A stretch of 39,229 nt of DNA from Eubacteriales bacterium (GCA_045540975.1 JAZQIE010000059.1:1-39229), one strand, 5' to 3'; positions 5,961-37,441 are shown, numbered from the stretch's first letter. The notes: generated by a model not told the origin, from the letters alone. Numbers and translations are program-made.

Positions 5961-6007
5961 CAGTATCTGTCCAAAAAATAGGACAAACCCCGAAAAATCG
6001 CAACCGT

Positions 6008-6441: not shown

Positions 6442-6450
6442 AGACCACCG

Positions 6451-9800: not shown

Positions 9801-10088
9801 CCCGTCATACAAATGCGTGAGTTCTGCCTCTGTGAGAATCCCTTGCGAGAGCAGAAGATTGCGAATCCGCTCGTTGCGATGCTTGTGGCGGCGCAGACGA
9901 CGGCGCGCGCCACGAGCCTCACGGCGCGGAAGCGCCAAGGAAGCCCCGTTTTTCGGGTGCTCCGCCGAGGGGAAAATACGGGAACCCATATCGAGAATCC
10001 CGCAAGGATGCTCGGATTCGTCAAGGGCGACAGCCGCCCAACCAACAGAGGAAACGCCGATGTCAAGACCGATTGCATACGGATACAT
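6834..10088 (-). CDS. cas9: Type II-C Cas9, 1084 aa
   Basis: RuvC-I GLDIG, Arg-rich bridge helix, RuvC-II INIELARE, HNH EVDHIIPYS...NKVLV...EN..KGN, RuvC-III HHAVDA; catalytic residues appear intact; no csn2 or cas4. Confidence 0.98.
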   Translation of the reverse strand: MYPYAIGLDIGVSSVGWAAVALDESEHPCGILDMGSRIFPSAEHPKNGASLALPRREARGARRRLRRHKHRNERIRNLLLSQGILTEAELTHLYDGVLSDIYALRVRALDEEVSAQEFARILIHISQRRGFRSNRKSGVSKEDGELLSAVNENLERIKENGYRTVAELFLKDEIYRENKRNKGGKYISTVSRDMVADEVRAIFKSQRGFGSSFASEEIEAAYLEILLSQRSFDEGPGGESPYGGNQIENMVGKCTLEPEEMRAAKATYSFEYFNLLERINHIRLVTNTASIPLTAEQRAAIVSLAHKSANLTYAKLRKELGISEEFSFNMVHYTAEMTPEDAEKKEKFCYLKAYHEMRVAFDKLSKGHIATLSTAQKNAIGRALSLYKTEEKICDALKDSGLTAEEIACAISIGSFSKFGHLSVKACDKLIPHLEAGMNYNDACAAAGYDFKGHSGKERSTRLHLTDEDLESVTSPVVRRAISQTVKVLNAIVRERGSAPTFINIELAREMAKDFGERTKLRRDMESNRARNERALERIKTEFGKRNPTGLDLVKLKLFEEQGGVCAYSQKQMSLERIFDTDYAEVDHIIPYSISFDDSYKNKVLVLSKENRDKGNRLPMQYLSGEARDRFIVWVNACVRDFKKRRNLLKERITEEDRNKFKERNLQDTKTMSRFLLNYINDRLEFAPSDKRKKRVTAVNGAITSYIRKRWGISKVRANGDLHHAVDAVVIACTTDRMIQEISRYAALRECEYLQTEEGSFAVNSATGEVLRRFPYPWEWFRKELEARLTDDPARVLNDLKIPLYREVGFPAPLFVSRMPQRKVTGAAHKETIKSAKALSEGLAVVKRPLTDLKLKDGEIENYYMPESDRLLYEALLSRLIAFGGDAKKAFAEEFRKPKADGSPGPIVRKVKLTEPTTLNVKVHDGLGIADNGGMVRIDVFHVENDGYYFIPIYTADTLKAELPNKACTRGYAYADWKEMKEEDFLFSLYPNDLIRVTSSRMLKLTKAQPESDLPDCYETESEFLYYTGADIATASISTYTHDGAYRSRGLGIKTLANFEKYTVDVLGRYHKVSKEPRQRFVRK

Positions 10089-21422: not shown

Positions 21423-22265
21423 CTAAGCCTGTTGTTTCTTCAAAGCCTCCGCCCACTCGTACGGAATCGCCAAATTCCCCGTTCCGCGCCCGAGTGCAAT
21501 ATGCGGTTTGTTGTCCCCGTGATAATCGCTGCCGCCCGACGGTAAGAGCCCAAACCGTTTCGCGAGTGCAAGGGCATCCGCGGCGGTCGTATCGTCATAT
21601 TCCGAGTAGAAGCACTCCATCCCCGCAAGACCGCACGCCTTTGCGCGCGGAAGGAGGGTCTCAAGCGCTTTTCGTGTTAAATTGAGAAACGGATGCGCCA
21701 GCACCGATACCGCGCCAAGCCGCCCGAGAAACCCAAGCATCTCAAAAAAATCAAGGCGTTCGGGCTCCTTGTAATGCCCGAATTTCGGATGCAGCAGCGT
21801 GTCAAACGCGGCTTTGGGCGACTCGGTGTATCCGAGCGCGACAAGACGCGCGGCAACGTGCGCGCGGTTGAATTTCCCATTCGGCGTGGCAGCGCAAAGC
21901 TCGTCATAATCCAGTAAATACCCCGCCGCATTCAGCGAGGAGATGAGTGCCTTGTTGCTCTCGCGCTTGCGCGCCTGCACATCCTCTGTCAGGGCGGTCA
22001 CCTCGGAAAACCCCTCCTCGGGGATAAAAAGCCCCAAAAGATGTAACTCGCGCCCCGCATAGTCCACCGAAAACTCTGCCCCCGCAATCGCCTCAATGGG
22101 GGAGTCCTTCGCGGCATCCAAAAACGCGGGGAGTCCGTCCGCGGTGTTGTGGTCGCACAGCGCAACCGCGCTCAGCCCAAGCGCGACCGCCGCGTCAATC
22201 AGCTCGCGCGGTGTGTCCGTCCCGTCCGAATAGATTGAATGTACGTGTAAATCGCAAATCCTCAT
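21423..22265 (-). CDS. PHP-domain metal-dependent phosphoesterase (TrpH/YciV-like)
   Basis: DLHVHS..SDG, CDHN, ELHLLG, LAHP, GGSDYHG. Confidence 0.92.
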   Translation of the reverse strand: MRICDLHVHSIYSDGTDTPRELIDAAVALGLSAVALCDHNTADGLPAFLDAAKDSPIEAIAGAEFSVDYAGRELHLLGLFIPEEGFSEVTALTEDVQARKRESNKALISSLNAAGYLLDYDELCAATPNGKFNRAHVAARLVALGYTESPKAAFDTLLHPKFGHYKEPERLDFFEMLGFLGRLGAVSVLAHPFLNLTRKALETLLPRAKACGLAGMECFYSEYDDTTAADALALAKRFGLLPSGGSDYHGDNKPHIALGRGTGNLAIPYEWAEALKKQQA

Positions 22266-22364
22266 CCGCTCACCTCACCACCATCATACCACATTCCGCA
22301 CAGAAAAGCAAAGCCGAGTTTTTGTTAAAAAAGTAACGCAAAAGTGTTTATTAATTAACAATTA

Positions 22365-22393
22365 TTGCGTTTTTTGAAACTATTTTGTATAAT
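22365..22393 (+). promoter_or_regulatory. Sigma-A promoter of the membrane pyrophosphatase gene
   Basis: TTGCGT-17 nt-TATAAT; AGGAGG RBS downstream. Confidence 0.7.
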
Positions 22394-22447
22394 AAGGAAG
22401 GTTTCGTTTTTTCGACGGAATACAACAATGATTAGGAGGCACATCCC

Positions 22448-24547
22448 ATGTATTATGCAGTCGTGCTTTCCGTTATCGTGCTCGCCCTTTTTTATGTGGT
22501 GTTCAACTACGTGCGCATTCGCCGTATGAACGAGGGGACAGCGGAGATGTCGGAAATGGCAGCAATCATCCGAAGCGGCTCCAACACCTTTATGAAAACC
22601 GAGTACAAAACAATTTCGGTTGTTGCGATTCTTGTCGCATTGATTTTCACCCTTTTCATCGAAAAAACCGCAGGGATCACATTCCTGTTCGGCGCGGCAA
22701 TGAGCAGCGCGGTCTGTGTTCTCGGTATGAAGAGCGCAACCTATGCAAACGTCCGTACCGCAAATAAAGCGCGCGAATCCCTCTCGATTGGCGAGACCGT
22801 CAAGGTCGCGCTTTGCGGCGGCAGTATTTCGGGCCTGAGCGTGCAGGCATTCGGTATGCTGGGTCTTCTGGCAGTCCTGCTTCTTTGGGGCGGCATTGAC
22901 CCGAACGCGGTCGGCAGCGGCTTTCTGGCAAATCTAACATGCAACCCGAGTATCATGCGTATTTCCACCTACTCGCTGGGCTGCTCCATGGTTGCAATGT
23001 TCAACCGTGTCGCGGGCGGTAACTATACCAAGGCGGCAGATATCTCGGCAGACATCCTCGCGAAAATCCGTCACGATATGCCGGAGGATGACAGCCGTGT
23101 TCCCAACGTTGTGGCAGACTTCATCGGGGATAACGTAAACGACATCGCGGGCAACTGCTCCGACCTGCTCGAGAGTTTTGTTGCTACCATGGCGGCGGCA
23201 ATCATGATTTCGGTCACCAACTTCGCAAATGCGGGCGCGGAAATCATGAGCGCGACCTCGATGTTCCCGATCGTCCTCGCAGGCGGCGGACTTCTCGGCT
23301 GCCTCCTCGGTCTTGTATTCGCGGCAATCCGTAAGATGGGCAATAACCCCTCCCGCGAGCTCAACCTCGCAACTTGGATTTCCGCGGGTCTCACAGTTGT
23401 TATCGGTCTCGCGGCGGCATATCTCATCTTCGGCGGACTCACGATTGACGGCTTCCGTCTGGGTTGGCTCAGCCCGTGGATTGCAAGTGTTTTGGGAATC
23501 GTCTGCGGCATCGCAATCGGCTCTATCACCGAGTACTACACCAGCGCAGACTTCAAGCCCACCAAGGTTTTGGCGGACATGGCAAAGGAAGGCGAAAGCT
23601 TTGTCATCACCAAGGGCGATGCAATCGGCTCCCGTTCCTGCCTCGCACCCATTCTTCTCATCGGAATCGCGCTTGTGGTCTCGGGTATCATCTGCGGTAC
23701 TTACGGCATCGCGATTTCCTCTCTCGGGATGCTCGCATTCGTCGGAACGACCGTTTCCATCGATGCATTCGGCCCGATTGCGGATAACGCGGGCGGGCTT
23801 GCGGAATCCTGCCATCTGGATGCGTCTGTCCGCGTGATTACCGATAAGCTCGACTCGGTCGGCAATACCACCGCGGCAATCGGAAAAGGCTTTGCAATCG
23901 GCTCCGCCGCATTCGCAACCGTCTCCCTCATCACCGCATATGTCGGAAACTATTCCTCGGGTACCCCCGTACTCAATATGGCATCCTTCATCGTGGTTGC
24001 GGGCGCACTTATCGGCGGCGCGCTGGTCGAGTACTTCTCCGCACTCCTCACCGATAATACCATCGAATCCGCGCGCCTCATGGCGGCGGAAGGTGACCGC
24101 CAACTCTCTGTCCCGGGCGTTTTGGAGGGCACGGTCAAGCCCGAGTACAACCGCTGTGTTGAAATGGCGGCACGTCATGCGCTTAAGAAAATGCTGCTCC
24201 CGTCCATGCTCGCACTCCTCATCCCGATTGCGGGCGGCTTCCTGTTCGGGGTCGAGTTCGTGGGCGGTATCCTGGTCGGTGCAACCGTCTGTGCAATCCC
24301 GCGCGCGATCTTCATGGGAAACTCGGGCGGCGCATTCGATAACGCGAAAAAGCACATCGAAAGCGGCGCAATCGAGGGTCACGGCAAAGGCTCCGCCGCG
24401 CATAAAGCCGCGGTCACGGGCGACACGGTCGGTGATACCCGTAAAGATGTGGTCGGCGTCGCACTCGATATCTTCATCAAGATGATGTCCACCGTCGCAA
24501 ATACCTTGGTCGTGGTCATCAAAAACTTCACATTGTTTCGATTCTAA
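22448..24547 (+). CDS. hppA: Membrane-bound H+/Na+-translocating pyrophosphatase (divergent)
   Basis: YTKAAD, PEDD, GDNV, EYYT, DAFGPIADNAGG, LDSVGNTTAAIGKGFAIGSA, GGAFDNAKK, GDTVGD; many hydrophobic segments. Confidence 0.93.
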   Translation: MYYAVVLSVIVLALFYVVFNYVRIRRMNEGTAEMSEMAAIIRSGSNTFMKTEYKTISVVAILVALIFTLFIEKTAGITFLFGAAMSSAVCVLGMKSATYANVRTANKARESLSIGETVKVALCGGSISGLSVQAFGMLGLLAVLLLWGGIDPNAVGSGFLANLTCNPSIMRISTYSLGCSMVAMFNRVAGGNYTKAADISADILAKIRHDMPEDDSRVPNVVADFIGDNVNDIAGNCSDLLESFVATMAAAIMISVTNFANAGAEIMSATSMFPIVLAGGGLLGCLLGLVFAAIRKMGNNPSRELNLATWISAGLTVVIGLAAAYLIFGGLTIDGFRLGWLSPWIASVLGIVCGIAIGSITEYYTSADFKPTKVLADMAKEGESFVITKGDAIGSRSCLAPILLIGIALVVSGIICGTYGIAISSLGMLAFVGTTVSIDAFGPIADNAGGLAESCHLDASVRVITDKLDSVGNTTAAIGKGFAIGSAAFATVSLITAYVGNYSSGTPVLNMASFIVVAGALIGGALVEYFSALLTDNTIESARLMAAEGDRQLSVPGVLEGTVKPEYNRCVEMAARHALKKMLLPSMLALLIPIAGGFLFGVEFVGGILVGATVCAIPRAIFMGNSGGAFDNAKKHIESGAIEGHGKGSAAHKAAVTGDTVGDTRKDVVGVALDIFIKMMSTVANTLVVVIKNFTLFRF

Positions 24548-24552
24548 AAAAA

Positions 24553-24582
24553 CAGCGGAGTGGGGTTTCCCACTCCGCTTGT
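24553..24582 (+). terminator. Terminator after hppA
   Basis: AGCGGAGTGGG-gttt-CCCACTCCGCT hairpin. Confidence 0.75.
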
Positions 24583-24594
24583 TGTAAAAAAGAA

Positions 24595-24782
24595 AACCAC
24601 GCGATAGTCGCGTGGTTCAAAAGAGGTTCATCGGTGAACAAAAAAATCCTCCAATGTGTTAGAATACCTTGACCGCCGGTCAAGAATAAAACACATTGGA
24701 GGATTTATCTATGAAAAGAGAAACCATAGACAAAAGTAGTTTAGCACACACAAAATGGATTTGTGAATATCACATCAAATAT
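24595..24782 (+). mobile_element. tnpA: IS200/IS605-family remnant (end hairpin, structured 5' UTR, tnpA 5' fragment)
   Basis: AACCACGCGA-tag-TCGCGTGGTT hairpin; 17-bp inverted repeat covering the GGAGG RBS; ATG 24711 reads MKRETIDKSSLAHTKWICEYHI, the typical TnpA(Y1) N-terminus, then similarity stops. Confidence 0.8.
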
Positions 24783-24788
24783 TTTGAC

Positions 24789-25598
24789 CTAATCAATATT
24801 ATTTCGCCATGCCTGATTGATGCGGATATTGTGATGGTGTTGTTCAGCATGATGGATAGCACTTTTATATTTGCTTCCTCTTGCAAATAAATCGATCTTA
24901 AGTTTATCACCAAAGGTTTGTTCCATTATGCATTCAACAATACCGTCATCTAAAAAACTACAAGAAAAAATATCAATGTTCGCAGTGCGTTCCAAAATGT
25001 CGTAATGAAAGGCAATGTGACTTTGAGCAACTACAAGGACACCTGAAATAAATTTCGGGGATTGTGTTTTGTCGTAAATAACATACGGACGCGAAATAGG
25101 CAACATATTGATTTTGGGGGCAATGTTATCAAGCCAGTTGAATATTTGCTCCGCGGTCACGTCGAAATCCTCTATGGTTATCATATAATGAGGCCCGAAA
25201 TCTAAGGAGGAATTGATTGTATTTGGAGGACTGTTGTCATTGCGTCGATCAACCACAATGGTGTTTATGTTTCTTGCATATATCTGCTGGCTGATAACAC
25301 GAATCGCTTCTTCTTCCGTGCAAAAATTGTCCGTTAGAATGTCTACGAAATAACAGTGGCGATACGGGAATGTATGAATGGTTACATGCGCGCCATTTTC
25401 ACAAATAACAAATGCACTGATACCACCATCTTCGGTGTCGTCACAATAATAGTAAGGAAGTAAAAAGGGCGGCATAACCGGACGCATCCCCAACTCGTGA
25501 GTCAAACTTACAAGTAGGTTGTTAACAGCCATAAAACTGTTAGATTGCGCCAAATCACAATCATATGCATCCATCATGACATGTCTGGTTGCTTGCAT
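24789..25598 (-). CDS. Tandem-domain S-adenosylmethionine decarboxylase (SpeD)-like protein
   Basis: Two SpeD-like repeats: H..MDAYDC...GISAFVICENGAHVTIHTFP...FVDILT and FGPHY...ISGVLVVAQSHIAFH...NIDIFSC. Confidence 0.75.
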   Translation of the reverse strand: MQATRHVMMDAYDCDLAQSNSFMAVNNLLVSLTHELGMRPVMPPFLLPYYYCDDTEDGGISAFVICENGAHVTIHTFPYRHCYFVDILTDNFCTEEEAIRVISQQIYARNINTIVVDRRNDNSPPNTINSSLDFGPHYMITIEDFDVTAEQIFNWLDNIAPKINMLPISRPYVIYDKTQSPKFISGVLVVAQSHIAFHYDILERTANIDIFSCSFLDDGIVECIMEQTFGDKLKIDLFARGSKYKSAIHHAEQHHHNIRINQAWRNNID

Positions 25599-27913
25599 TA
25601 GATTTCTTCCTTTCTGGAATCATTGAAAAGATTATTGAATCTTCTAAAATTAATTAAAACAGGATCGATCCACCACTTGTAGTTGGAGCGAATCACATTG
25701 GGCAAACAATAATAAACTTCGCTTCTCGGATAAGAGAATTCTGACAAAACGTTAATATTGGTTTGGTACTCCAGCTTGTTATCGTTATCGATGTCAATAT
25801 TTAGCGAAAAGTTAACTGTCTTGTAACCGTCCGGATTTTCTTTGCTGCGGTTAAATGCTGCGGTAAATGGGTAAATCGTATTAAACAGATTGTGGTCGAA
25901 TGGCGTATTACCGTAACTTCCTGTTTTGAAATATTCAAGTATTTCAATCGTTGTATTTACCCAAGTTTCTGCGTGTTGGTAGGGCGCATCACTTACTGAT
26001 AGCAGACGCATATAATGCTTTTTTAACACGCGTTTATCAATGATTTCGTATTTGCCTACTGCCACGTATAGATTGTGTGGGTTAGGCATGTTAGAGTTGT
26101 TGGATAAATCGCAAAAAGAGATAAAAGCATCAAATAAGCGAAGAGTTCCTTTGGGATGATCGGTTTCATAATTCTCTTTCGCAAGTTTTTCGGCTTTTCC
26201 TTGTGCAGCAGCAAAAAATTCATCTTCAAGCTTTTTTTGCGCGTCGGCAATGATGTCCTCGCTTAAGCACTTGTTGCTTGCCTCGTTGTCATACTCTGCT
26301 TTGATTTCCCCGTATTTATACAAACCGGAGTAAAAACACATAAGGTGCTTGAATGTTTCGCTAAGTATGATACATGCATGACGAATCCGCTTTTCACTCT
26401 CTGTAGAAGAATCCATGCTTTTTAAAAGCGAAATATTACTGTGGAGGTTTCCTGTGTAGATCAGGCTCTCATTCTGTTTGTTCTCCTGAAACATGGAGAG
26501 GTGGGAAACGATTAACATCGCACGCGCACGCGCTAATAATCTCCCTGTTGGTTTTGGTTTTGTGATTTTGCCGAAACCACCCGCTTCACCTACAACAAGT
26601 TTTGTGTCGTGAATTCGCTGCACCTCTGCATTTAATTCAGCCTGCTTTACGTTGAAACAAGGGAGGTCTGTGCGCTTGTATAAATTGGATACTATGTCGT
26701 AAAATGTCTGCGGAACACTCCACATAAGACGCTCAAGGACTGCAGTGGGACTTGCTTCGATGAGTAACATGATAACAATGGTATCCCAGTCAAGCGAATG
26801 AATGTCATTTTCGTAAACCGGTTGTTTAGACTGCGCCCCGCTTTTTTGAAAAACATACGGATATGCCGCACCGAAATGCTTATGAATTGCCTCTTTGCTT
26901 CCCGCGTTGGCACTGATTGCATCGGAAATTGCCAATGCCAGATTCTTGATATACTTATAATTAACAGTATGTATCTGATCAATGCTGTTAGAGTTTTTGA
27001 TGGTTTTGTCTGATTGTGACGAAAAAGGCATTTCGAAGCCGGTCAGTTCCATGTATACTTCGTTTGGACGCTGATTAATTAAATGTGATGAATTGTTGTC
27101 ATCGTCAGGGAGCGTGAAAACAACGGAATTGTTGCCGGAAAAGTATTTCAACACAATTAACGGTTGAGTGGATTGATTTGCGTCTGCAATATCTTCTCGC
27201 AATTCCACACTAAACAGATGATAAATTCCGCCGAACAGATTTGAATCGCGGAAGAAAATATGGTTTAACGGTAACACATCGAAGTCACAAGAGGAATTGT
27301 TTGTGCAGACAAAACGAAACATATCTGCACTCAGTTGTTGTAATTCATAATTGTGCAAGAAGGTTAATGTCTCAAGCAGTTCTTTTAACATTCTAAGCGA
27401 TTCGGCCTTGTTTTCGCATTGATAGCGTGAAGGATTTTTATCATATGCGGAAATGAGTTTAAAATAAGGATTGAAACTAAAACGACTCATATCCCTATTG
27501 CTTAAATCACCAAATACATCCTTTAATTCCCCACCGTTTTGGGCCAAGTCAAACTGAATATCTGTCAACACATATTGAATCAGTTCTTGGGTGGCAGGAT
27601 ATCGCACGAAGACGTCTTTTAAACTCTTGATTACCCGTTTAGCATTATGCTTCCCCATTTTTTGAGAGAACATACCGCCGAAGTCCATATCATAACGGTA
27701 ACATGCATAAGAAAAATAGAATGTCAACAATAAAGCATTTTTCATGAAAACAGGATAAAGCCTATACTGACTCAATAAATCCTCCAAAAGTTCATCTATA
27801 TCGTCCGTGCCGAAGATGAAACTACGGATATTACTGTCGACGATTGTATCCTCTAAAAGATGTTCAAGCAGTCGTCTTTGCTTTTTAATCTCGTCTTGGA
27901 CCCTATTCTCCAT
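25598..27913 (-). CDS. Hypothetical protein, 771 aa
   Basis: Long open frame in AT-rich DNA, GGAGGA RBS, TAATG coupling to the next gene; no family recognised. Confidence 0.85.
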   Translation of the reverse strand: MENRVQDEIKKQRRLLEHLLEDTIVDSNIRSFIFGTDDIDELLEDLLSQYRLYPVFMKNALLLTFYFSYACYRYDMDFGGMFSQKMGKHNAKRVIKSLKDVFVRYPATQELIQYVLTDIQFDLAQNGGELKDVFGDLSNRDMSRFSFNPYFKLISAYDKNPSRYQCENKAESLRMLKELLETLTFLHNYELQQLSADMFRFVCTNNSSCDFDVLPLNHIFFRDSNLFGGIYHLFSVELREDIADANQSTQPLIVLKYFSGNNSVVFTLPDDDNNSSHLINQRPNEVYMELTGFEMPFSSQSDKTIKNSNSIDQIHTVNYKYIKNLALAISDAISANAGSKEAIHKHFGAAYPYVFQKSGAQSKQPVYENDIHSLDWDTIVIMLLIEASPTAVLERLMWSVPQTFYDIVSNLYKRTDLPCFNVKQAELNAEVQRIHDTKLVVGEAGGFGKITKPKPTGRLLARARAMLIVSHLSMFQENKQNESLIYTGNLHSNISLLKSMDSSTESEKRIRHACIILSETFKHLMCFYSGLYKYGEIKAEYDNEASNKCLSEDIIADAQKKLEDEFFAAAQGKAEKLAKENYETDHPKGTLRLFDAFISFCDLSNNSNMPNPHNLYVAVGKYEIIDKRVLKKHYMRLLSVSDAPYQHAETWVNTTIEILEYFKTGSYGNTPFDHNLFNTIYPFTAAFNRSKENPDGYKTVNFSLNIDIDNDNKLEYQTNINVLSEFSYPRSEVYYCLPNVIRSNYKWWIDPVLINFRRFNNLFNDSRKEEI

Positions 27914-27930
27914 AAACGTTCCTCCGTTGA

Positions 27931-28845
27931 CTAACAGTTGCTGATAATTGCCGCAAGCTTCCTGTATCTTTCCAGTGCAAGTTTCTCGTTTTCATTCAGT
28001 TCAGCTTGGGTGGCCAGTTGACCTTCGCGCCACATGAAACTCTTGACCGCCGGAATCCCAAATTCGTTTTCGTCTAACATACCGGTTTCGTAAGAAATAT
28101 CGTCGTCAGCGTTTTGAACCAGCATTTCAAACTGAGATGTAATACGTTTAACTGCATAATCCGGGTATTTCTTGTCATCTACAATTACTTCTTCCTGGGG
28201 AATAACATTTGGCACAGCTATAATCTTCTTTCGTCCGTCAAACGAACCACCCTGTTCCAAGGATTTTAAAAATCTAACGGTTCCGTTGACAAATTGGATG
28301 GTAGGACGCATGCAGCAGACAACAATGTTGGAGACCTGATTTGTAGCATTCGCTGTTGCGTTGTTGCCAACAGCAGCATCTAAAATCACCGCAGGAACTT
28401 TATAATACTTGCAAACGTCAATAAAATCGCGCAGTTTTTCGGTGAAAGGATTGTTGGAATCGTTATAGTTTCCCTGGTCATCAACGTTTTTTACATCTTT
28501 TGCAGCCAAGAATAAAATAGATTCTTTATCGTAGCCGAAATGGTCTCCGACAGCAAAGAGATCTTTGAAATTAGGATGTTGCCAAATGAATTCCGGATAG
28601 TCTAAGGATTTCAATCCGTTCTTCAACAAGTCCTGTGTACAACATTCGTCGGTTACTTCGGTATCAACCCCTAATAAATAAGACATGCCGCAACTATCTA
28701 AGTCAGTATCAATGATGATTATGGGATGGTCTTTGGTAGGATGAAGATGTTCTTTGGCGAGAATCGGAATCGTATTATATGCTAAAGTACTTCTGCCGGC
28801 ACCACCCTTGTATGAAAAATAAGAAATTACTTTTAACCTTGCCAT
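27931..28845 (-). CDS. ParA/MinD-like ATPase, KGGxGR variant
   Basis: Deviant Walker A SYKGGAGRST (Arg in place of Lys), IIDTDLD, ILDAAVG; GGAGGA RBS. Confidence 0.82.
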   Translation of the reverse strand: MARLKVISYFSYKGGAGRSTLAYNTIPILAKEHLHPTKDHPIIIIDTDLDSCGMSYLLGVDTEVTDECCTQDLLKNGLKSLDYPEFIWQHPNFKDLFAVGDHFGYDKESILFLAAKDVKNVDDQGNYNDSNNPFTEKLRDFIDVCKYYKVPAVILDAAVGNNATANATNQVSNIVVCCMRPTIQFVNGTVRFLKSLEQGGSFDGRKKIIAVPNVIPQEEVIVDDKKYPDYAVKRITSQFEMLVQNADDDISYETGMLDENEFGIPAVKSFMWREGQLATQAELNENEKLALERYRKLAAIISNC

Positions 28846-28868
28846 AATATCCTCCGTGAATTGTTATT

Positions 28869-31157
28869 TTAGCCTAATTTGGTATACATGTTGCTTCTGT
28901 GATTGACATCGCTTGAGATGTCATCAATGTTATGGTTGATAATTGCACGCACATCTTCTTTGAAATATTTGGTTTGTTTCTCATATTCTTCAGGTGTGCA
29001 ACGCTTGAATGAGGAACTGTTTGCATAGCATTCGGCAACTACCATTTCCGTCATAGCGCCAAAAAGTTTTGCATACGTGCCGTTTTCATCTTGTGTGGGA
29101 TTAACTGTATCGGGTGCAAAACATGCCGCTGCCTGAGAGAATGCTTGTGTAAGAAGTGCAACGAATTGTGTGCTCAATTCCTTCTCTATCAGTTCACAGA
29201 TGCTATCCTCAACAGTTGGCTTTTTCAACCTTTCCTCTTCTAATAATTGTTCAAGTAACGCAATGCGGCTGTCACGCTGCGCAATCAGTCTGTCTTTTTC
29301 CTCTTCTGCTTTTTCGTGACGAGCTTTCAACTGCGTGATTTCGCCGTTGGGACCGGTAAGTCTGCTGTAATACTCTTGCTCTCTTTTTTGATTGTCGGCA
29401 CCAACTTCGATATACTTTTTTTCGTATGCTTCGTAGTATTCGTAAAGCTCTTTCAAAGCATTAACATAATAATAGTTACTACCGCTGAAATATCCGTCTT
29501 TTTCCCAAATCCACTCGGTGGTCTTGCCTTGCTCGGAACTTTCGGTGTATCGGTTTTCTAAAATAAAACCGGTGTACTTCTGCATGTTGATTTGGGGGTA
29601 TTTCACCAAATATGCGTTAATGATGTTGTTGGTGTGGATGAGCATGGGAAGAAGAGAGAAGACCCTCATGCGCAGTTTTCTTAAATCGTTAACACGTTCC
29701 TTATGGAAAACGAAGCGTTCGTTAAAACCGATAAGAAATTGGTCAACAATATAGTCCTTGCCATCGTTTTTTAAACTTTCATATGTACGGAAAGCTCGTT
29801 GTACGGCGAGCTGACAACTCTCGAGGAGGTTGTTGTATTCTCGCGATTTTTGGACGGAAAGGTTCCTTTGCTCTTCACGTTCTTGAGGAGTAATACTCTC
29901 ATCAGCGCTTTTTATTTCCGCCTGACGCATTTGCAGTTGCAATAACTCATCCATGCCACCGTCAATCAGGATATTAACAATATATACGGTGTTAAACAGA
30001 ACGTCACTGGTAGTACTCATGCGAAGTTCACTTTCGCTAAGTTTTGTAGCTAGGTCATTATAGAAGAAACTGTCTGCCAAGTCGGTGTTAACAAAACTCC
30101 AAATTGCGCTTGCAACATCTTTTAAATGCTTTTCCAAGAGTCCGTAGCGATGCGTAGAATCTACTTTGATTTCCTCGTATGGATCTTGCTCGCCGATTCT
30201 ATCGTTAGAGTTAATCATTCTAAATAAACGAACAAGTTCATTGTAGGTATCGTGACGGGCAACATCTTTGGGCTTGTCAGCGTTCTCTGCTTCTTCGAAC
30301 TGGTATTTTTCTTTCTGTTCGTCAAACTTCGCTTTGGCTTCTTCGTCAATTGGAGTGCCAAATTGTGCGTTGTTAAATAGGCTATACGGATATTTTAACA
30401 CTTCCTCAAATGTTGCGAACATATCCAGGAAACATTCACCGACTGTAAAGGTAAAGTATAAAGAAGGTTCTTCACAGTTCTTTGCAAAGTTCCAGCCGAT
30501 TTTCAAGCCTTTGCCATCCGGATTTTTGCTACCATCGATAAATGCGTTGTTGATATAGCGGAGACCGTATCGAATAATGCTAATTAAGTTGTGCTCCCAT
30601 TTGCAAATCTGTCCGGCCTCAGCATGGATGGTTAAAATCTGGAAGAAGGTAGGAAGTACCCAAGTGATGGTTTCAATGCTTGCGATTTCGGTATCAAAGT
30701 GATCAGAATCATACGGAGAAGCATCAAATATAAAGAGTTCCTTAACGCTCTCCTGTTCGTTTATATCCTCGTCAATTTCAATGTCGCTCACACGGAGTTT
30801 GTTGATGATATCTTTCAAAATCGCATCCATTATATTACGGATAGACCGATGGTGAATGGTGTCATACTCGGTATTGTCAAACTCCAAGCCAAAGTCGTTA
30901 ACCAACGAAACCAGTGTTTGAAGGCCTTGACACTGTGACAGCAAACCAACCTTCTTTTCGGCGTCGTCCATTGGAATACCCAGTTTACCGTTGCCCAAAT
31001 CGATTAGACGTGCATTGATCGCTTTGAAGATATCACGAGCAACTTCGCCTTGCGCTTTGTAAATCGGAAAGATGGTTTCAATATGCTCACGCTCATGACT
31101 CTGCATTGTTTTTTTGTCCAGTATATCCTTTAAGGGGTTGTTTTCAAACTGTTCCAT
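28869..31157 (-). CDS. Hypothetical protein, 762 aa, helical with C-terminal coiled coil
   Basis: Long ORF with GGAGGA RBS; E/K/R/Q-rich heptads near aa 600-660; weak alpha/alpha-barrel-like repeats (GLRYI...GW...SLYFT). Confidence 0.85.
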   Translation of the reverse strand: MEQFENNPLKDILDKKTMQSHEREHIETIFPIYKAQGEVARDIFKAINARLIDLGNGKLGIPMDDAEKKVGLLSQCQGLQTLVSLVNDFGLEFDNTEYDTIHHRSIRNIMDAILKDIINKLRVSDIEIDEDINEQESVKELFIFDASPYDSDHFDTEIASIETITWVLPTFFQILTIHAEAGQICKWEHNLISIIRYGLRYINNAFIDGSKNPDGKGLKIGWNFAKNCEEPSLYFTFTVGECFLDMFATFEEVLKYPYSLFNNAQFGTPIDEEAKAKFDEQKEKYQFEEAENADKPKDVARHDTYNELVRLFRMINSNDRIGEQDPYEEIKVDSTHRYGLLEKHLKDVASAIWSFVNTDLADSFFYNDLATKLSESELRMSTTSDVLFNTVYIVNILIDGGMDELLQLQMRQAEIKSADESITPQEREEQRNLSVQKSREYNNLLESCQLAVQRAFRTYESLKNDGKDYIVDQFLIGFNERFVFHKERVNDLRKLRMRVFSLLPMLIHTNNIINAYLVKYPQINMQKYTGFILENRYTESSEQGKTTEWIWEKDGYFSGSNYYYVNALKELYEYYEAYEKKYIEVGADNQKREQEYYSRLTGPNGEITQLKARHEKAEEEKDRLIAQRDSRIALLEQLLEEERLKKPTVEDSICELIEKELSTQFVALLTQAFSQAAACFAPDTVNPTQDENGTYAKLFGAMTEMVVAECYANSSSFKRCTPEEYEKQTKYFKEDVRAIINHNIDDISSDVNHRSNMYTKLG

Positions 31158-31168
31158 GGTTTTCCTCC

Positions 31169-32176
31169 TTAATTTTCTAATTTGTTTAAGAGTGAATAGA
31201 GTATAACTGAATCAAGTGTTATTACCGGGCGGATGCCTTTTTGATATAATTTGTGATTGTAACCGTTTTTATATATTGTACCATCCTCACGAATAACTGC
31301 TTGAAGATGACCGACTGTTTCGGTAAGCCACCAAATCTTATTTCTTGACAGTTCTTCTTGTGTCAATTGCTCGGCTTCTTCCAAGGTCAACAATCTAATT
31401 TTCCCCTGTAATTCACGCTGCTCATTCTCCGAGAAAGATTCCTTTGTAAATTTATTCAGCCAATCGCTTAGCGCTTGTCCACCTAAAGTGTCGGTTAAAA
31501 CATCTTGACAGAGCAAGGTGGATTGATTGTTTTCATCAGAGATTTTACGCCAAAGAATAGGTTTGTTGTCGTAAATCCCGAGCCTAAAAATAACATCCTT
31601 ATTTGCGTTCGAAAGGTCTACAAGTTTATCGCGGATTAGTTCATGTTCGTCTACTGTTTGAGCTGCAAGGCTTTTTATGTTTTGGAATAAGCTTTGCTTG
31701 TCCGCTACATTGGTTGCGGAATAGAACAAATGATCTTTTTTTCCGAAAAGGCTGCGAAAATCATCGTAATCATCATCGGAAAAAAGATCCTCTCGTTTTT
31801 TGACGAAATTCGTCAAAAAACGATAATCAAAATCCTGATCGTCACCTATCATAATAATTTGCGGATAGAACATACCTTTAGGACGAGATTCCTTCGTTTT
31901 AGCGGCCGCGCGCCACTCCTTTGCGACGTTAGGACTCTCAATTGCGCTTTTGCTGCAAAAGAATAGAATTCCGGAACAATTCTCGTGTGACAACAAGTCT
32001 TTTGCGATGGTTTCCCAATCGTCGCCACCCATAAACGCTGTGTCCCACCAAATGCGAACACCCTTGTCAATCAGATAATTGGTCCAATCTTGTACAATTT
32101 CCTTGTCATCATGTGCATAACTGACAAACAAAAACTTGTCTGTTGTTGCTTCGGCAGTTGTGTAAAAACTCCGCAT
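31169..32176 (-). CDS. TIR-domain protein with C-terminal DUF6273-like domain
   Basis: FLFVSYAHDD, IWWD....G.DW, GILFFCS..AIES.NVAKEW (candidate catalytic Glu); C-terminal LG....PILWR...LL...WLN.F....FS..E...IRLL..EEA...WWL...GIRPVI.L. Confidence 0.82.
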   Translation of the reverse strand: MRSFYTTAEATTDKFLFVSYAHDDKEIVQDWTNYLIDKGVRIWWDTAFMGGDDWETIAKDLLSHENCSGILFFCSKSAIESPNVAKEWRAAAKTKESRPKGMFYPQIIMIGDDQDFDYRFLTNFVKKREDLFSDDDYDDFRSLFGKKDHLFYSATNVADKQSLFQNIKSLAAQTVDEHELIRDKLVDLSNANKDVIFRLGIYDNKPILWRKISDENNQSTLLCQDVLTDTLGGQALSDWLNKFTKESFSENEQRELQGKIRLLTLEEAEQLTQEELSRNKIWWLTETVGHLQAVIREDGTIYKNGYNHKLYQKGIRPVITLDSVILYSLLNKLEN

Positions 32177-32224
32177 GTCGAATGCCCCTCCAAAAAATAA
32201 ATCGCAATACTAATATTCATTATA

Positions 32225-32253
32225 ATTATACGATTTTACAATGTTTTTGTCAA
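32225..32253 (-). promoter_or_regulatory. Perfect-consensus sigma-A promoter for the five-gene operon
   Basis: Minus strand TTGACA-17 nt-TATAAT; GGAGGGG RBS at 32185-32191. Confidence 0.85.
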
Positions 32254-32448
32254 TGTTCCATGGGTCTATTATTTGTTTTCTAGGAATAAATTGTCAGTTT
32301 TTGTTCTGCAGATGATAATCCTATCTTGTTTTCTAAAAAGCAGAAATGACACAGCGAATAAGTAAATATTTATTTTGTAAAAAACTGAAGTTTGCAAAAA
32401 CCCTTTATTCACTCATGAACACCATCTTGTTTGATCCCCGCGTGGCAT

Positions 32449-32502
32449 AAAAAGCCCTCCTATGGACGTTGGCTCAAGTCGACCGTAGGAGGGCTTTTTT
32501 TT
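32449..32502. terminator. Strong bidirectional terminator-like hairpin at the island edge
   Basis: AAAAAGCCCTCCTATGG...CCGTAGGAGGGCTTTTT. Confidence 0.8.
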
Positions 32503-32567
32503 ATTGTGAAACAACAAGGTTCCGGGGCACCCGACCGCAATCTATGATTGCGTGACGGGTCGGGTTC

Positions 32568-35500
32568 TTATTCCGCGGTTTTTACAATGGTTTCAAGCGC
32601 AGTTTTTTCGTCGTCACTCATGTTTTCGCCGTTACGAGCGAGACCGTTTTCCGCAACCTCAAAGATGGAACGCTCGGTCCAGGTGTCACCGTAAACCGTT
32701 TGCTCAACGCCGTTTTCATCCACATAAATGACATACGCTCTTGCGACAAAGACACGTTTGTAGTGTCTCGGCTCAAGGTTAATCAAAACCGCGGTGAAGG
32801 TGACCGAATCCAGCGAATCACGGTAGCGATTCTTTGCGACAACCTTCGCGGATTCCGCACCGTTCTTACCGACATAACCCAAGGTCAAATCCGAGCCGTC
32901 ATGACCGTCTAAGAGGAAATCCTTCGGCAGGAGAACCGTACCGAATTCCTTCACCTTGGAGGAGTCAACGTTGTACTCACTCTTATAGATGGTGGAGATG
33001 AAGCGGAGACCCTGATCGCCTTTGGTACGAACCTGCGCACCCTCAAGTGTGTAGAACGCATCACCGGTGCGGTGCAGGGTCAGTCCGTGGAGCGAAATCA
33101 GACCGCCGCTTGTACCTTTGTAGTTCACTGCGGTGGATTTCACGGTCAGAATGTACTCGCCCGCATAAAGCGCACGTTCGCCAAGCTCCAAGCCGTAGGC
33201 CAGGTTGCTTCTCTTGGTGATGTGATGGGAGCCAACCTTCCATCTCTCAGCGGTCGGGTCGGTCGCATTAATGGGTGCAATGTAAACATCAAAGTCGTTG
33301 GCTTTGCTCCAATCGGAGATGTTGAGCACTGTGCCGTAGTTTGCATCCTGATCAACCTTGAACTTGAGCTGAGTGTAAGTACCCACGGTTTTCGAGCTCA
33401 TCACAAACAAGCCGTAGCCTTGGGAGGTGGACTTGGTGTAATTGCAGTAGTTTTCGCTCGCGCTGGTGCTAAGCAGCATCCACGGTGCAGAGCCGCCGTC
33501 GGTCGATGCGGTGTATGAAGTCGCAAAATCCGTAGTAAACAGATTAAACGCGGTTGCATCGTTAAATTCGGTCGGGAAATCACGGTATTTCTCAACCGGT
33601 GCCTTAAAGTCAAAGGTGTAGGAGGAATTCTCCTTCTGTCCGATGATGACACGAACCTTGCCGACAATCGTTCCGTCCGCGGTGGAAATCGCGGTGATGA
33701 GCGCGGTACCTTCGGTTACCGCCTTGGTGGTGATTTCACCGCTTGCGCTAACCGTTGCAACCGCTTCGTTGTCGGAAACCCAGGTCACAGTCTGTTCCGC
33801 CAAAAGCGGATGAATCATCGGAATGAGCGTATGACTTGCATTTGCGCTTAAGTACAGCGCTTCGTCCACATGGTTGATAAAGCGAATATCCTTCGGCTTC
33901 GGCTGGACATACGGACCTGTTTTGTGCAGGACAAACGCGTGCAGATAGATGTAACGGCCGATTGATTCCGCAGACTTCAGCACCATGTTGTATTTGCCCT
34001 TTGCCAAATGGATTCCGTCAAAGCGCTGGCTGTCAAGACCGAGGTCTGTCACAATCACATCGCCGTCTGCTTCGCCATCCAATTCCGTGGTGCCGACGTA
34101 ATATGCCTCATGCATCAAGTCGTCGGTCGGGCAAGAAATCGGGGAGATGTAGAGTTCCACCTGACGGGAGCCCTGTGTATCGGACGAATTCAGCGCCAGA
34201 TACTGAAGGATTTCCGGAGTGTAGTAACCGTCTTCGGTGATTTCAATCTCAAAATGTGCGTAAGAGTCGTTGTTGTTGCCGAGGAGGAAGAGACCGTATT
34301 TGTAGTTCGGGTCGGTCTTATCTCCCTCGCCGTCCTCGATTGCGGATTCACCGGTATACGCGGTGGAGATGGAATCGTATTTTTCAATCAAACGCCAGCC
34401 CTGACCGAAGTCATGGTAGTTCTTCCAGGAATAAGCCGCATCGGTGAAGGTGGTGTCATCGGCAATGTTGACTCTGAGCTTACCGGTGGACTCCGCGTAC
34501 TTCTTGATAACCTCGTTGAAGGCGTAAACCTGTGCGGTGGAGCCAACCTGAATGACCACAGTCTCCGAACGAGCATCACGCGCGGTCGCGGTAATGAGTG
34601 CGACACCTTCGCCCTTCGCGGTCACAAGACCGGTATTCTTATCAACCGTTGCAACGTCGGTGTTCGACGAAGTCCATGAAACGATATCCTGCACCGCCCA
34701 AATCGGCTTGACGGATGCGGTAAGCTGCACGGTATCACCAATCGCCAAAGGCGCCATCGCCTCAGACGGTTTTGTGATGACCACAGCCTTCGGGGTGAGG
34801 GGGTCAGCCTCGGTGTCGGTCTCAACCAACGCGAGGTGATACAGATAGAGGTAACGCGCGGTTTTTTCGCCGTTTGCATTCAGCGTACCGTTGTATTCGC
34901 CAACCTTAAAGGTGAGGTAATACTCACCCGCTCCGAGGTACATTGCCTCATCGCTTCTCTTTGCCTTGATTGTGCCTGCACCCGGAGCATTCGCATCGGG
35001 AGTCAGCGTCATTACATGCTTGGTGTACGGGTCCTGACTAATCGGGGAAATGTAAACCTCGGACTCGCGCATATTTCCGGGGCCGTTGTCACGGTACAAC
35101 ACTTCGGGGGTGTACCATCCGCTTGTATCCACGCGAATCTTAAAGCGCACCCACTTGTCACTCCCGTTGCCAAGGTCGAGGAATACGCCGTAGCGTTCGT
35201 TGTATGTGGCATTGCCGTTGTTGTCTACGTGCGCCTGATACACGGTGGGGAGGATGGTGTTTGCATCCTGACCCACGAAAACCCACTTGTCACCGACAGT
35301 GACCTTGCTGTAATCGTTAAAATAGTCAAATGCAATCGAGGACAAAGACTGCTCGGCAAGATATTTCTTTGCCACATTGTTAAAGGTATAGAGCAGAGCA
35401 CCGGTAGATACCGAGGTGACCTCCTCACGTCCGTCAACCGTTGCGGTAATCACATTACTGCCCTTGAGTGTTCCGCTTGCGGTGAGAACGCCGTTATTTA

Positions 35501-37172
35501 CGCTGACGTATCCGTTCTGCCCTGCCGCAAAGCCCCAGGTAACGGTTTGATCCGCGGTACTCGGAAGCGCCTTCACGCCCAGCTTGTAGGTATCGTTGCC
35601 TGCGGTCATCTTCGGGGTCGGGTTATCAATCACAATGCGGGAAGCCTTGTTCGCATTGCTGTATGCACCTTGATACAAAAGTGCGATATGATTGACAAAG
35701 ACATATCTGCCGCTAGTCGATGTTGTCTTGAAGGTGACGTAATATTCACCCTTGCGCAGAGCAATCACACCGCCTTTTGCATGTTCCATAGCCATGTTTG
35801 TGCTGCCGGCTTGTGTCTGTGCTACATATGCCTCTTCCGGGCAGGAGCCTGCCGCATAGGTGGTCGGATAAATGTAAACATTGGAAGTGACTGAACTGGT
35901 GTGATTGACATAAGCAATATCCGGGATGTAATTGCCGTCGCTTTCAACGTTGATTTTGAAGGTGACGGTTCGACCTGCCAATTGAGTATCCTGAATATCA
36001 ACAAATGCACCGTACCAGCTGTTGACGTCACTGCGATATGCGGCAACTCGGAGGGGGGAGGTAATGGTACTGTGCGCAAAGCACCACTGATCTGCGCTTG
36101 TGCTGTTCGCATAGGTGTTTTTGAACACATTGTCAATTTCCACTGTCTCGGATTCATTTGCACGCATATAGTTCTGCGCATCCTCGTTGATGGCATACAA
36201 CTGGGATTTGCTGTTGCCGACAAGGACAGAAACCATTTCTCTGCGTGCGCTGGTTGTTGCGGCAATGACCGCACTTCCCGTGGTACTGCCTGCGGTCACA
36301 AGACCGGTGCTCGCATTCACACCTGCAACAGAAGCGTTAGAGGAACTCCAAGTCACGCTGGGCTGATGAACATAACCGCTTGCGACACTGTGCGGAATCT
36401 GCAGCGCACGAAGCTGACGGGTAGCGCCCGCGCTCAAAATCGAGCCGCTGTTTCCGTAAATTGCCAGTTTCTTTGCGGCTGCCGGTGCGGCATCACTGTT
36501 TTTGGTCAGCTTCACATTGTGAAGCATAAAGTAATTATGGTTGGCTGTTTGATTCGTATTCGGTCGGAACGTAATATAATAGTTGCCGGCTGTCAGCGGT
36601 ACACTGTAAGCTGCCCCCTTGCTTTCCAAAACACCGGTCGTCGGGTACTGCATATCGCCGCTGTTGATGGAAACAATCTGTTCGGAAACATCAAGCAAAA
36701 CCGGCTGATTGCCGGATGCCGAGGACAAATACACTGCGCACTCGCGGGCAGATTCGTAATCATAGTAGGTCACCGAAATACCGTAAGTGCCTGTTTCCGG
36801 GACATTGATTTCAAAGGTGGCGTAGTTGTTTAGTCCTTCACTGCCGGAAAAGAGAAACACACCGTATTGTTCTTGCGCGCTGCCGTTGTGCTGAATCAAG
36901 CCGGTATTGGTCCGCCCACGTACAAAGCGCCATGCGGCAGTACTGCCGGAATAGGTATTTAACGTATCAAATGTGGTGTCAGTCGTAAGACTGAGTGGGT
37001 TGCTGCCGAAGGAAGCAGAATTGTTCGTATGATGTGTCTTCAAGCCTTCCGCAAAGTTGTAGACATATGTGATGTCTGCCGCACTTGCGGAAAACATATC
37101 GGCGGGCAAAAATGCCACCAACATACAAACTGCGAGAAGAAGGGAGGTGAGCCGTCGAATCATTGTGTACAT
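32568..37172 (-). CDS. Large secreted modular protein (about 1534 aa): 5 beta-sandwich modules alternating with 4 Big_2 Ig-like domains, plus conserved C-terminal domain
   Basis: ATG 37172 with GAGAGGA RBS; signal peptide RRLTSLLLAVCMLVAFLP...ASA; VTWxSSNxxVAxV..GLVTA Big_2 motifs; recurring YGxF...FxIxV..xGxY...LxAGxYYxTF modules. Confidence 0.85.
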   Translation of the reverse strand: MYTMIRRLTSLLLAVCMLVAFLPADMFSASAADITYVYNFAEGLKTHHTNNSASFGSNPLSLTTDTTFDTLNTYSGSTAAWRFVRGRTNTGLIQHNGSAQEQYGVFLFSGSEGLNNYATFEINVPETGTYGISVTYYDYESARECAVYLSSASGNQPVLLDVSEQIVSINSGDMQYPTTGVLESKGAAYSVPLTAGNYYITFRPNTNQTANHNYFMLHNVKLTKNSDAAPAAAKKLAIYGNSGSILSAGATRQLRALQIPHSVASGYVHQPSVTWSSSNASVAGVNASTGLVTAGSTTGSAVIAATTSARREMVSVLVGNSKSQLYAINEDAQNYMRANESETVEIDNVFKNTYANSTSADQWCFAHSTITSPLRVAAYRSDVNSWYGAFVDIQDTQLAGRTVTFKINVESDGNYIPDIAYVNHTSSVTSNVYIYPTTYAAGSCPEEAYVAQTQAGSTNMAMEHAKGGVIALRKGEYYVTFKTTSTSGRYVFVNHIALLYQGAYSNANKASRIVIDNPTPKMTAGNDTYKLGVKALPSTADQTVTWGFAAGQNGYVSVNNGVLTASGTLKGSNVITATVDGREEVTSVSTGALLYTFNNVAKKYLAEQSLSSIAFDYFNDYSKVTVGDKWVFVGQDANTILPTVYQAHVDNNGNATYNERYGVFLDLGNGSDKWVRFKIRVDTSGWYTPEVLYRDNGPGNMRESEVYISPISQDPYTKHVMTLTPDANAPGAGTIKAKRSDEAMYLGAGEYYLTFKVGEYNGTLNANGEKTARYLYLYHLALVETDTEADPLTPKAVVITKPSEAMAPLAIGDTVQLTASVKPIWAVQDIVSWTSSNTDVATVDKNTGLVTAKGEGVALITATARDARSETVVIQVGSTAQVYAFNEVIKKYAESTGKLRVNIADDTTFTDAAYSWKNYHDFGQGWRLIEKYDSISTAYTGESAIEDGEGDKTDPNYKYGLFLLGNNNDSYAHFEIEITEDGYYTPEILQYLALNSSDTQGSRQVELYISPISCPTDDLMHEAYYVGTTELDGEADGDVIVTDLGLDSQRFDGIHLAKGKYNMVLKSAESIGRYIYLHAFVLHKTGPYVQPKPKDIRFINHVDEALYLSANASHTLIPMIHPLLAEQTVTWVSDNEAVATVSASGEITTKAVTEGTALITAISTADGTIVGKVRVIIGQKENSSYTFDFKAPVEKYRDFPTEFNDATAFNLFTTDFATSYTASTDGGSAPWMLLSTSASENYCNYTKSTSQGYGLFVMSSKTVGTYTQLKFKVDQDANYGTVLNISDWSKANDFDVYIAPINATDPTAERWKVGSHHITKRSNLAYGLELGERALYAGEYILTVKSTAVNYKGTSGGLISLHGLTLHRTGDAFYTLEGAQVRTKGDQGLRFISTIYKSEYNVDSSKVKEFGTVLLPKDFLLDGHDGSDLTLGYVGKNGAESAKVVAKNRYRDSLDSVTFTAVLINLEPRHYKRVFVARAYVIYVDENGVEQTVYGDTWTERSIFEVAENGLARNGENMSDDEKTALETIVKTAE

Positions 37173-37288
37173 GATATCATTCCTCTCAATATGTAGTTTT
37201 TTTGTGTAATGATGGAAATACACAGAATAATCATAACATAAATATGAGAAAAAGTAAATACTTATCGAAGTTTTTATAACAAAACAAG

Positions 37289-37320
37289 AAAAAAGGCAGA
37301 GCCATGATTGACTCTGCCCT
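37289..37320 (-). terminator. Intrinsic terminator after the small peptide gene
   Basis: GGCAGAG...CTCTGCC stem followed by TTTTTT on the minus strand. Confidence 0.8.
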
Positions 37321-37333
37321 TTGAATGAACCTG

Positions 37334-37441
37334 TTATGCCCACGGATCGGAGACATCGTTGTCGCCGTAAGACGCGGTCATTACATCATCGGTCAAAAAG
37401 ATTTCAACCTTCAGTTCGGGGGATTCGTAGAACTCTTTCAT
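37334..37441 (-). CDS. 35-aa peptide MKEFYESPELKVEIFLTDDVMTASYGDNDVSDPWA
   Basis: AAAGGAG RBS, ATG at 37441, TAA at 37334, starts 15 nt after the upstream stop and is followed by a terminator; below the ORF-track cutoff. Confidence 0.8.
   Translation of the reverse strand: MKEFYESPELKVEIFLTDDVMTASYGDNDVSDPWA

Follow-up and report, generated by a model that had tools for sequence, protein, structure and literature searches.

A five-gene operon of gut Clostridia with a TIR and putatively lectin-like protein, a KGGxGR ATPase and a swappable terminal enzyme is a candidate new conflict system

The window, that is, the whole stretch of DNA analysed here, comprises 39,229 nucleotides (nt) from Eubacteriales bacterium (GCA_045540975.1, JAZQIE010000059.1:1-39229) and carries an operon of five genes, named A to E (Table 1). 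These encode a TIR protein with a putatively lectin-like C-terminal half (A), a large toroidal protein (B), a ParA/MinD-like ATPase (C), a large protein without recognised family (D) and a tandem decarboxylase-fold enzyme (E). A first-pass annotation, made from the sequence alone, had put the locus forward as a candidate undescribed defence system. The present analysis suggests, at a probability of roughly one half, that the operon is a new multi-protein conflict system, horizontally mobile and most likely directed against phages or other mobile elements with an abortive-infection logic. This reading is proposed because the operon combines a fast-evolving lectin-like domain on a TIR protein, a nucleotide switch, swappable enzymes and a patchy horizontal spread.

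Related loci were collected by scanning one genome per prokaryotic species, which returned 39 loci, all in metagenome-assembled genomes (MAGs) of Clostridia. The hosts belong to Oscillospiraceae, Acutalibacteraceae, Christensenellaceae, Faecousia and other groups, and many come from animal guts. Genes B, C and D were found in 39/39 loci, in the same order and on the same strand, down to about 25% identity, so that the conserved gene order which the first-pass annotation proposed to look for is present throughout. Gene A was found in 37 of the 39 loci, the two exceptions being cut by contig ends, and its copy in locus L034 was recognised via TIR_2. Gene E was likewise found in 37, and the other two loci carry a GNAT gene. 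Complete five-gene loci number 34, and among their junctions a single gap, of 48 nt, exceeds 35 nt; D and E overlap in 13 of these 34, the median gap at this junction being 5.5 nt. Identities to the window copy rise and fall together among B, C, D and E (Spearman 0.81-0.87), and A follows more loosely (0.60-0.64). The five genes are a conserved unit, inherited as one tightly packed operon.

In the window, the gaps between A and B, B and C, and C and D are 11, 23 and 17 nt long and D and E overlap by 1 base (TAATG), a layout of five co-oriented genes that the open reading frame (ORF) coordinates confirm as first described. GGAGG-type ribosome-binding sites lie 6-9 nt upstream of the starts, and E has a weaker version, AAGGAAG. 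The perfect promoter that had been reported is real, TTGACA-17-TATAAT at 32253-32225 (-) being the only 12/12 match within 24400-32700.

The terminal gene E matches Pfam AdoMet_dc in two stretches (2.4e-20, 73.3 bits against a gathering score of 25). In its domain 2, residues Q192, S193, H194, H198 and C213 are invariant (33/33), and S193, H198 and C213 are the counterparts of S63, H68 and C83 of T. maritima SpeD, which Li et al. 2023 (PMC10407285) describe as essential for self-processing and catalysis. Domain 1 lacks the Cys, and its Ser position holds S in 23 of 33 copies, G in 9 and A in one, which is the window copy. Judged from these residues, E is a pseudo-dimer with one intact active site, domain 1 being degenerate and domain 2 catalytically complete. 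The same paper shows arginine and ornithine decarboxylases among the SpeD homologues, so that the substrate of E may be S-adenosylmethionine (SAM), arginine or ornithine. SpeD-SpeD fusions also exist (PMC10407285). E resembles these fusions in having two class-1b halves in a chain of about 270 amino acids (aa), one of which may be degenerate, with Ser, His and Cys kept in the active half. Unlike them, E has a degenerate N-terminal and an active C-terminal half and QS-H instead of ES-H, and it stands without a speE neighbour in a TIR/ATPase operon, where it is interchangeable with a GNAT. Its score against the SAM-decarboxylase equivalog TIGR03330 (57.8 bits) lies below the cut-off of 75.65. 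No speE was found in the operon, and in the whole genome Spermine_synth gave a single weak match, 28 bits in a frame of 185 aa. AdoMet_dc matches nothing in the genome besides E, which is also the most conserved of the five proteins (median 61% identity to the window copy). The earlier label of a "tandem SAM-decarboxylase" output therefore stands as to the fold and the pyruvoyl active site (33/33), and is not supported as to the output, SAM being one of three known activities and E being exchanged for a GNAT in some loci.

In loci L037 and L039 and in genome G945, the fifth gene encodes a GNAT acetyltransferase of 204-209 aa (Pfam 5e-10) instead of E. In genome G936, D itself ends in the GNAT as a C-terminal fusion, giving an operon A-B-C-D::GNAT, and a C-terminal GNAT was present in 12/12 scanned D-family representatives of 955-991 aa. 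A metagenome scan with a D-GNAT alignment found no relative. Because E and the GNAT occupy the same position, the terminal enzyme is a swappable output, and E is one such enzyme, not a fixed "SAM" output. This exchange resembles the effector-swap pattern typical of defence systems. The D-GNAT fusions, together with the D/E start-stop overlap, argue in the Rosetta-stone manner for a direct partnership between D and the terminal enzyme. When the complex of E with D 580-771 was predicted, the score was 0.01, the mark being 0.32, and this result counts neither for nor against an interaction. One genome, G938, keeps B-C-D-E without the TIR gene, which indicates that the core can do without the TIR and that A is a front end commonly present but not required; the earlier notion of a TIR-linked module is correct insofar as A is conserved in the operon and does not extend to this genome. 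The invariant core is B-C-D plus a terminal enzyme.

Further arrangements were observed around the GNAT variant. At L064 (G945:C3, 6522-7925), the GNAT gene is directly followed and overlapped by a gene for a protein of 467 aa whose N-terminus is TIR-like, which makes a six-gene version. At L042 (G410:C3, 10148-11339), the gene for a 195-aa homologue of the D C-terminal module (E 9e-29) overlaps a GNAT gene. This protein is 38% identical to the D of L037 and its GNAT is 35% identical to the GNAT of L037; the neighbours are a split terminase large subunit, DUF3990 and a helix-turn-helix gene, in a decayed prophage region. The pair is probably what remains of the GNAT variant. Stand-alone copies of this D module are rare (8 matches, mostly on contigs of about 1 kb) and are probably remnants.

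Gene A matches Pfam TIR_2 (3.4e-13, 50.6 bits against a gathering score of 28), as do 36/36 of its orthologues. Residues S19, Y20, W43, D45, W54, C67, G69 and E87 are invariant in all 36, E87 being the catalytic Glu. The C-terminal half of A bears a WWL...G(V/I)RP(V) signature. The DUF6273 label given to this half is partly supported: the window copy matches at E=0.1 (12.9 bits, under the 23.5-bit gathering score), and 16/36 orthologues match at E<=1, the best at 2.1e-5. Two papers (PMC10743442, PMC11792537) describe DUF6273 as C-type-lectin-like and as the variable region on which diversity-generating retroelements act in the receptor-binding proteins of gut phages. On this basis the C-terminal half of A may be a ligand-binding module, and A would pair a divergent DUF6273-type binding domain with a TIR holding the catalytic Glu. 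A is also the most diverged of the five proteins, with a median identity to the window copy of 29% against the 61% of E.

Protein C had been described as a KGGxGR ATPase, and the motif is there in 37/37 copies, in which K13, G14, G15, G17, R18, D46, D48, D50 and the Walker B D156 are invariant. In its Walker A, an Arg replaces the P-loop Lys, and the canonical deviant pattern KGGxxK[ST] is absent. The best match is NCBIfam NF047398 (KGGVGR-motif variant AAA ATPase, 8.6e-14); its 52.3 bits lie below the curated cut-off of 90, true members scoring 145-204 bits. Scores against ParA_partition (17.8 bits, cut-off 180) and MinD (12.2 bits, cut-off 201) were far lower, and no sequence relative was found in the PDB at E<=0.01. 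C is best described as a divergent ParA/MinD-like NTPase, which would act as a nucleotide switch. So-called "inactive MinD/ParA-like" domains occur in VMAP ternary conflict systems, as reported by Kaur et al. 2020 (PMC7159879). The NF047398 and VMAP MinD/ParA-like ATPases share with C the Walker A variant in which Arg stands for the P-loop Lys. C differs from the NF047398 ATPases in being a stand-alone protein of 304 aa without STAND or EAD modules and below the family cut-off, and the operon differs from VMAP ternary systems in that vWA and MoxR AAA+ genes were not found in it.

Genuine KGGVGR ATPases were encountered in 8/301 Bacillota genomes (L045-L052); they are 400-1037 aa long and some have STAND-like C-terminal modules. 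In 7 of these 8 loci a gene of 124-157 aa lies just upstream of the ATPase, with a Pfam HEPN match in 2, and HEPN plus KGGVGR ATPase looks like a recurrent pair. The KGGVGR-type switch was counted among the immune-type parts because these Bacillota relatives are fused to STAND-like modules and have a HEPN gene upstream in 2/8 loci.

The first-pass annotation had recommended a fold search for the two large proteins, and this search gave a match for B and none for D. The AlphaFold model of B has a predicted local distance difference test score (pLDDT) of 84.8 and a predicted template modelling score of 0.74, and shows an (alpha/alpha)6 toroid followed by a coiled coil. In VIA-align, its closest relative was the TEP1r thioester domain (Z 18.5, root-mean-square deviation 3.6, 275 aligned), followed by C4d (Z 18.1), drimenyl-PP synthase (17.9) and GH76 (17.5); the best Foldseek E was 2.7e-3. 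As modelled, the fold of B would be generic among ligand-binding and catalytic toroids. Pfam, NCBIfam and PADLOC gave no sequence family for B, and in 36 orthologues Pfam showed coiled-coil noise alone. An assignment of B as a thioester domain was rejected: the fold agrees, but B has QCQ at 75-77, not CGEQ, and C76 lies outside the conserved columns.

For D, no family was found in Pfam, NCBIfam or PADLOC, nor by Pfam in 26 orthologues. Its model has a pLDDT of 74.7 and gave no fold match (best Foldseek E 0.14, best VIA Z 7.0), and the ESM Atlas gave no usable match for whole D or for D 580-771. D has 101 relatives at E<=1e-3 in a collection of 5.8 billion proteins, none informatively named. 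An exhaustive search of 1.84 billion proteins gave 246 representative clusters at E<=1e-3 (111 at E<=1e-30), and those D-family representative clusters that carry names are all unannotated. Two assignments were dismissed for D, that of its N-terminus as HEPN (VIA Z of 4.8-6.5 only, and an hhalign probability of 0.2 against a HEPN neighbour of a KGGVGR ATPase) and that of residues 320-420 as a death-like fold (Z 5-6, under the noise level for helical bundles).

The island is foreign to its present genome and was horizontally acquired, as the first-pass annotation had concluded, and the evidence is a drop in guanine-cytosine (GC) content, a truncated IS200 element and patchy occurrence. In 1-kb windows, GC is 0.385-0.422 over 25001-32000, 0.518-0.572 over 22001-24000 and 0.508-0.539 over 33001-36000, so the lower GC of the island relative to its flanks (0.508-0.572) was rightly noticed. 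Across the loci, the operon has between 31 and 54% GC, in most cases following that of its host, which makes the contrast seen here a sign of recent arrival and not a family trait. The IS200 fragment on one side and the strong hairpin on the other, both also seen at first reading, were verified. Elsewhere in this genome, contig G000:C115 (L044) carries an intact IS200-type element with a complete Y1_Tnp gene (138 bits), and the fragment (24575-24776) shares 186/204 identities with the left end of that element. The match spans both element hairpins and about the first 20 tnpA codons, and the island can be said to adjoin the truncated copy because this match ends about 13 bp before the stop codon of E. 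The hairpin has 20-nt arms (32449-32468 and 32480-32499) that are 90% complementary, just downstream of the neighbouring Big_2 surface-protein gene. No direct repeats flanking the island and pointing to an att site were found. As to occurrence, the module is present in 2/41 relatives, a count that takes in the genome of the window itself, and the copy from the same genus is a full operon whose D is only 41% identical; in 2/399 genomes sampled across the class, with 2 further genomes unscored; and in 9/301 genomes of the order that holds L037.

The conflict reading can be developed into a mechanism, in which sensing, order of activation, substrate and phenotype are all proposals. The lectin-like domain of A would recognise an invader-derived ligand, and this ligand would switch on the TIR as an NAD+ consumer, either as effector or as signal maker. 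B, C and D would form an ATP-gated regulatory scaffold, within which D may restrain the terminal enzyme and release it on activation. The released enzyme would then decarboxylate (E) or acetylate (GNAT) an amino-acid-type metabolite, which for E could be SAM, arginine or ornithine, and this modification or depletion would arrest the infected cell. Stated in full, this is a new immune class, in which a lectin-TIR receptor and a KGGxGR switch control a B/D scaffold with a swappable enzyme, here a pyruvoyl decarboxylase by which infected cells would lose their SAM, arginine or ornithine; in this specific form the proposal is tentative and, on balance, doubtful. Metabolite-depleting effectors of abortive infection include TIR and SIR2 NADases and effectors that deplete deoxynucleoside triphosphates or ATP. 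The proposed mechanism resembles these in the removal of an essential metabolite upon sensed infection, and the TIR of A could do so with NAD+. The searches made gave no case of a pyruvoyl decarboxylase or a GNAT serving as immune output.

Several observations weigh against a role in conflict, starting from the fact that we infer defence from the parts and their distribution. The genes flanking the operon differ in every genome and belong mostly to housekeeping and carbohydrate metabolism (139 + 56 flank proteins scanned). Among these 195 proteins only a handful are of conflict type, and neither classic defence islands nor a conserved neighbour were seen, so that the defence-island context which had been expected did not appear. 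Neighbours of conflict type do occur around some copies, namely two non-specific endonucleases and a YpsA-SLOG protein in L003, a RyR protein and an AAA-M41 protease in L007, and further TIR genes in L012, L019 (where a TIR-HD protein is accompanied by TraG), L026 and G945. These TIR genes, like a TIR-MORN gene 3.4 kb from the operon in the window, count in favour of the conflict reading. A tblastn search of D against plasmid and phage collections gave no match. None of the signal-binding domains SLOG, SAVED, CARF and Macro was detected in B to E, and no PADLOC model fits the operon beyond weak TIR and P-loop matches. The high conservation of E also fits a metabolic enzyme. Finally, in the TIR-less genome G938 no A homologue was detectable with this query, and a gene of the agmatinase/guanidino-acid hydrolase family (L067, G938:C30, 128-1042; E 4e-36 to 3nio and 4e-31 to 3pzl) lies 17 nt upstream of B, which makes a polyamine link possible.

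These last observations lead to the alternative that the operon is an accessory amine or polyamine module. Here E, as a pyruvoyl decarboxylase of arginine, ornithine or SAM, would produce an amine, the GNAT of the variant loci would acetylate one, the task of B-C-D would be assembly, localisation or regulation of the enzyme, and the TIR-lectin protein would be a regulatory add-on. In favour of this alternative are the proven arginine and ornithine decarboxylases among SpeD homologues and the SpeD-SpeD fusions (PMC10407285), the agmatinase-family gene in the TIR position, the strong conservation of E, and the mostly metabolic flanks. That E is the only AdoMet_dc gene of the genome could be added to this list; together with the weakness of the only spermidine-synthase-like match, however, the same fact was taken as a reason not to regard the operon as housekeeping. 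TIR, a ParA-like ATPase and two 760-aa scaffolds belong to no known polyamine pathway, and the operon has neither speE nor a transporter. In metabolism a decarboxylase and an acetyltransferase cannot stand in for each other, yet here the two swap in place and both couple to D. The agmatinase neighbour is a single case, and the very patchy spread (2/41, 2/399) and the foreign GC in the window also speak against a metabolic role, which we consider unlikely.

Comparison with described systems supports the earlier statement that the operon is no named system: PADLOC gave no full match, Pfam and NCBIfam gave none either, and full-text literature searches yielded no description of this gene combination, supplementary lists of candidate systems lying outside that search. 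We regard the putative system as new because its core families have no described function and its arrangement is unlike that of any named system. The nearest comparison is Thoeris, which it resembles in its catalytic-Glu TIR with a variable sensor-like domain, in the several TIR genes sometimes present per locus, and in being accessory and patchy. Within the defence reading, one could therefore imagine a Thoeris-like signalling variant, in which the TIR makes an NAD-derived signal and B-C-D with the enzyme is the signal-activated effector. The additional TIR genes that adjoin the operon in L026 and G945 and recall multiple ThsB genes, together with a weak PADLOC ThsB1 match of A (E 5.7e-4), would agree with this; the match is limited to aa 6-46. 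A ThsA-type effector (SIR2-SLOG or TM-Macro) was found neither in B to E nor in 26 D and 36 B orthologues by Pfam and PADLOC, and neither was SLOG, Macro, SIR2, SAVED or any other known receptor domain in B to E. Four other proteins stand in its place, and in one genome the core persists without the TIR. This variant is accordingly judged quite improbable. CBASS and Pycsar are unlike the operon in that it has no cyclase and no Pfam SAVED domain; the PADLOC SAVED_TIR match (1.5e-8) covers profile positions 4-211 of 404. A PADLOC match of C to PDC-M28B (9.5e-6) covers aa 4-60, the P-loop, and no full-length match was obtained.

A selfish addiction island resembling a toxin-antitoxin pair, in which E or the GNAT would be a toxin held by D and would cause post-segregational killing without a dedicated anti-phage role, could account for the D stop and E start that overlap or lie a few nt apart in most loci (13/34 overlap), for the D-GNAT fusions and for the D-C-terminal fragment with overlapping GNAT that survives beside a decayed prophage in G410, but it is very unlikely, given that five large genes (7.4 kb) go far beyond the needs of an addiction module, that a TIR-lectin protein and an ATPase imply sensing, and that the rare fragment and GNAT pair (8 matches) may be a deletion remnant.

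The features of the window that concern the operon are collected in Table 1.

Table 1. The operon and adjoining features, in coordinates of the window.
Feature	Position	Strand	Description
Operon A-B-C-D-E	24789-32176	-	ORF calling; five genes, about 7.4 kb, all co-oriented
Gene A	31169-32176	-	335 aa; TIR aa 17-111 (nt 31844-32128) and C-terminal divergent DUF6273/C-type-lectin-like domain, about aa 200-323 (putative)
Gene B	28869-31157	-	762 aa; modelled (alpha/alpha)6 toroid, about aa 10-580; long coiled-coil helices, about aa 558-750
Gene C	27931-28845	-	304 aa; ParA/MinD-like NTPase (predicted), KGGxGR Walker A
Gene D	25598-27913	-	771 aa; without family or fold match; C-terminal module about aa 585-758
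Gene E	24789-25598	-	269 aa; tandem AdoMetDC-fold; domain 1 nt 25245-25583, domain 2 nt 24909-25151
Promoter TTGACA-17-TATAAT	32225-32253	-	12/12 match
Truncated left end of IS200-family element	24575-24776	+	hairpins and first ~20 codons of tnpA; E-side island boundary
Two terminator-like hairpins downstream of E	24618-24594, 24579-24554	-	11 pairs each, then T-runs
Strong hairpin between Big_2 gene and operon promoter	32449-32499		20-nt arms, 11-nt loop

The surroundings of the island contain other elements. On the promoter side lie genes for huge Big_2-repeat surface proteins, at 32568-37343 (1591 aa) and 37457-39229 (-) (more than 549 aa). A second TIR protein, with eight MORN repeats, is encoded at 19866-21410 (-), 3.4 kb from the island; the whole genome has five TIR_2 matches. 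A CRISPR array with 7 repeat copies (6005-6445, period 66-67 nt) adjoins a Cas9 gene (6834-10088, -) with HNH_4, RuvC_III and Cas9_RuvC domains, and cas1 and cas2 were not found among the ORFs scanned near the array. An ORF for a WYL/WCX regulator (4924-6180) runs into the array, and its start is probably over-extended. An Rfam search gave no match inside the island, the sole match of the window being a tRNA gene (54-141, -).

What the operon would mean depends on which reading is right, and the D-enzyme fusion offers a direct, testable handle under either. If it is metabolic after all, it would be an unprecedented and heavily regulated amine route in gut anaerobes. If the conflict reading is right, the operon would represent a new defence architecture with a new output chemistry, the pyruvoyl decarboxylation or acetylation of an amino-acid-type metabolite. 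A pyruvoyl enzyme would then for the first time be seen as an immune effector, and abortive infection would gain a further way of depleting a metabolite. To our knowledge, few defence systems have been tested in gut Clostridia. An immune role would give two families of about 760-aa proteins their first functional context, and would extend KGGxGR ParA-like switches and lectin-TIR receptors to these bacteria.

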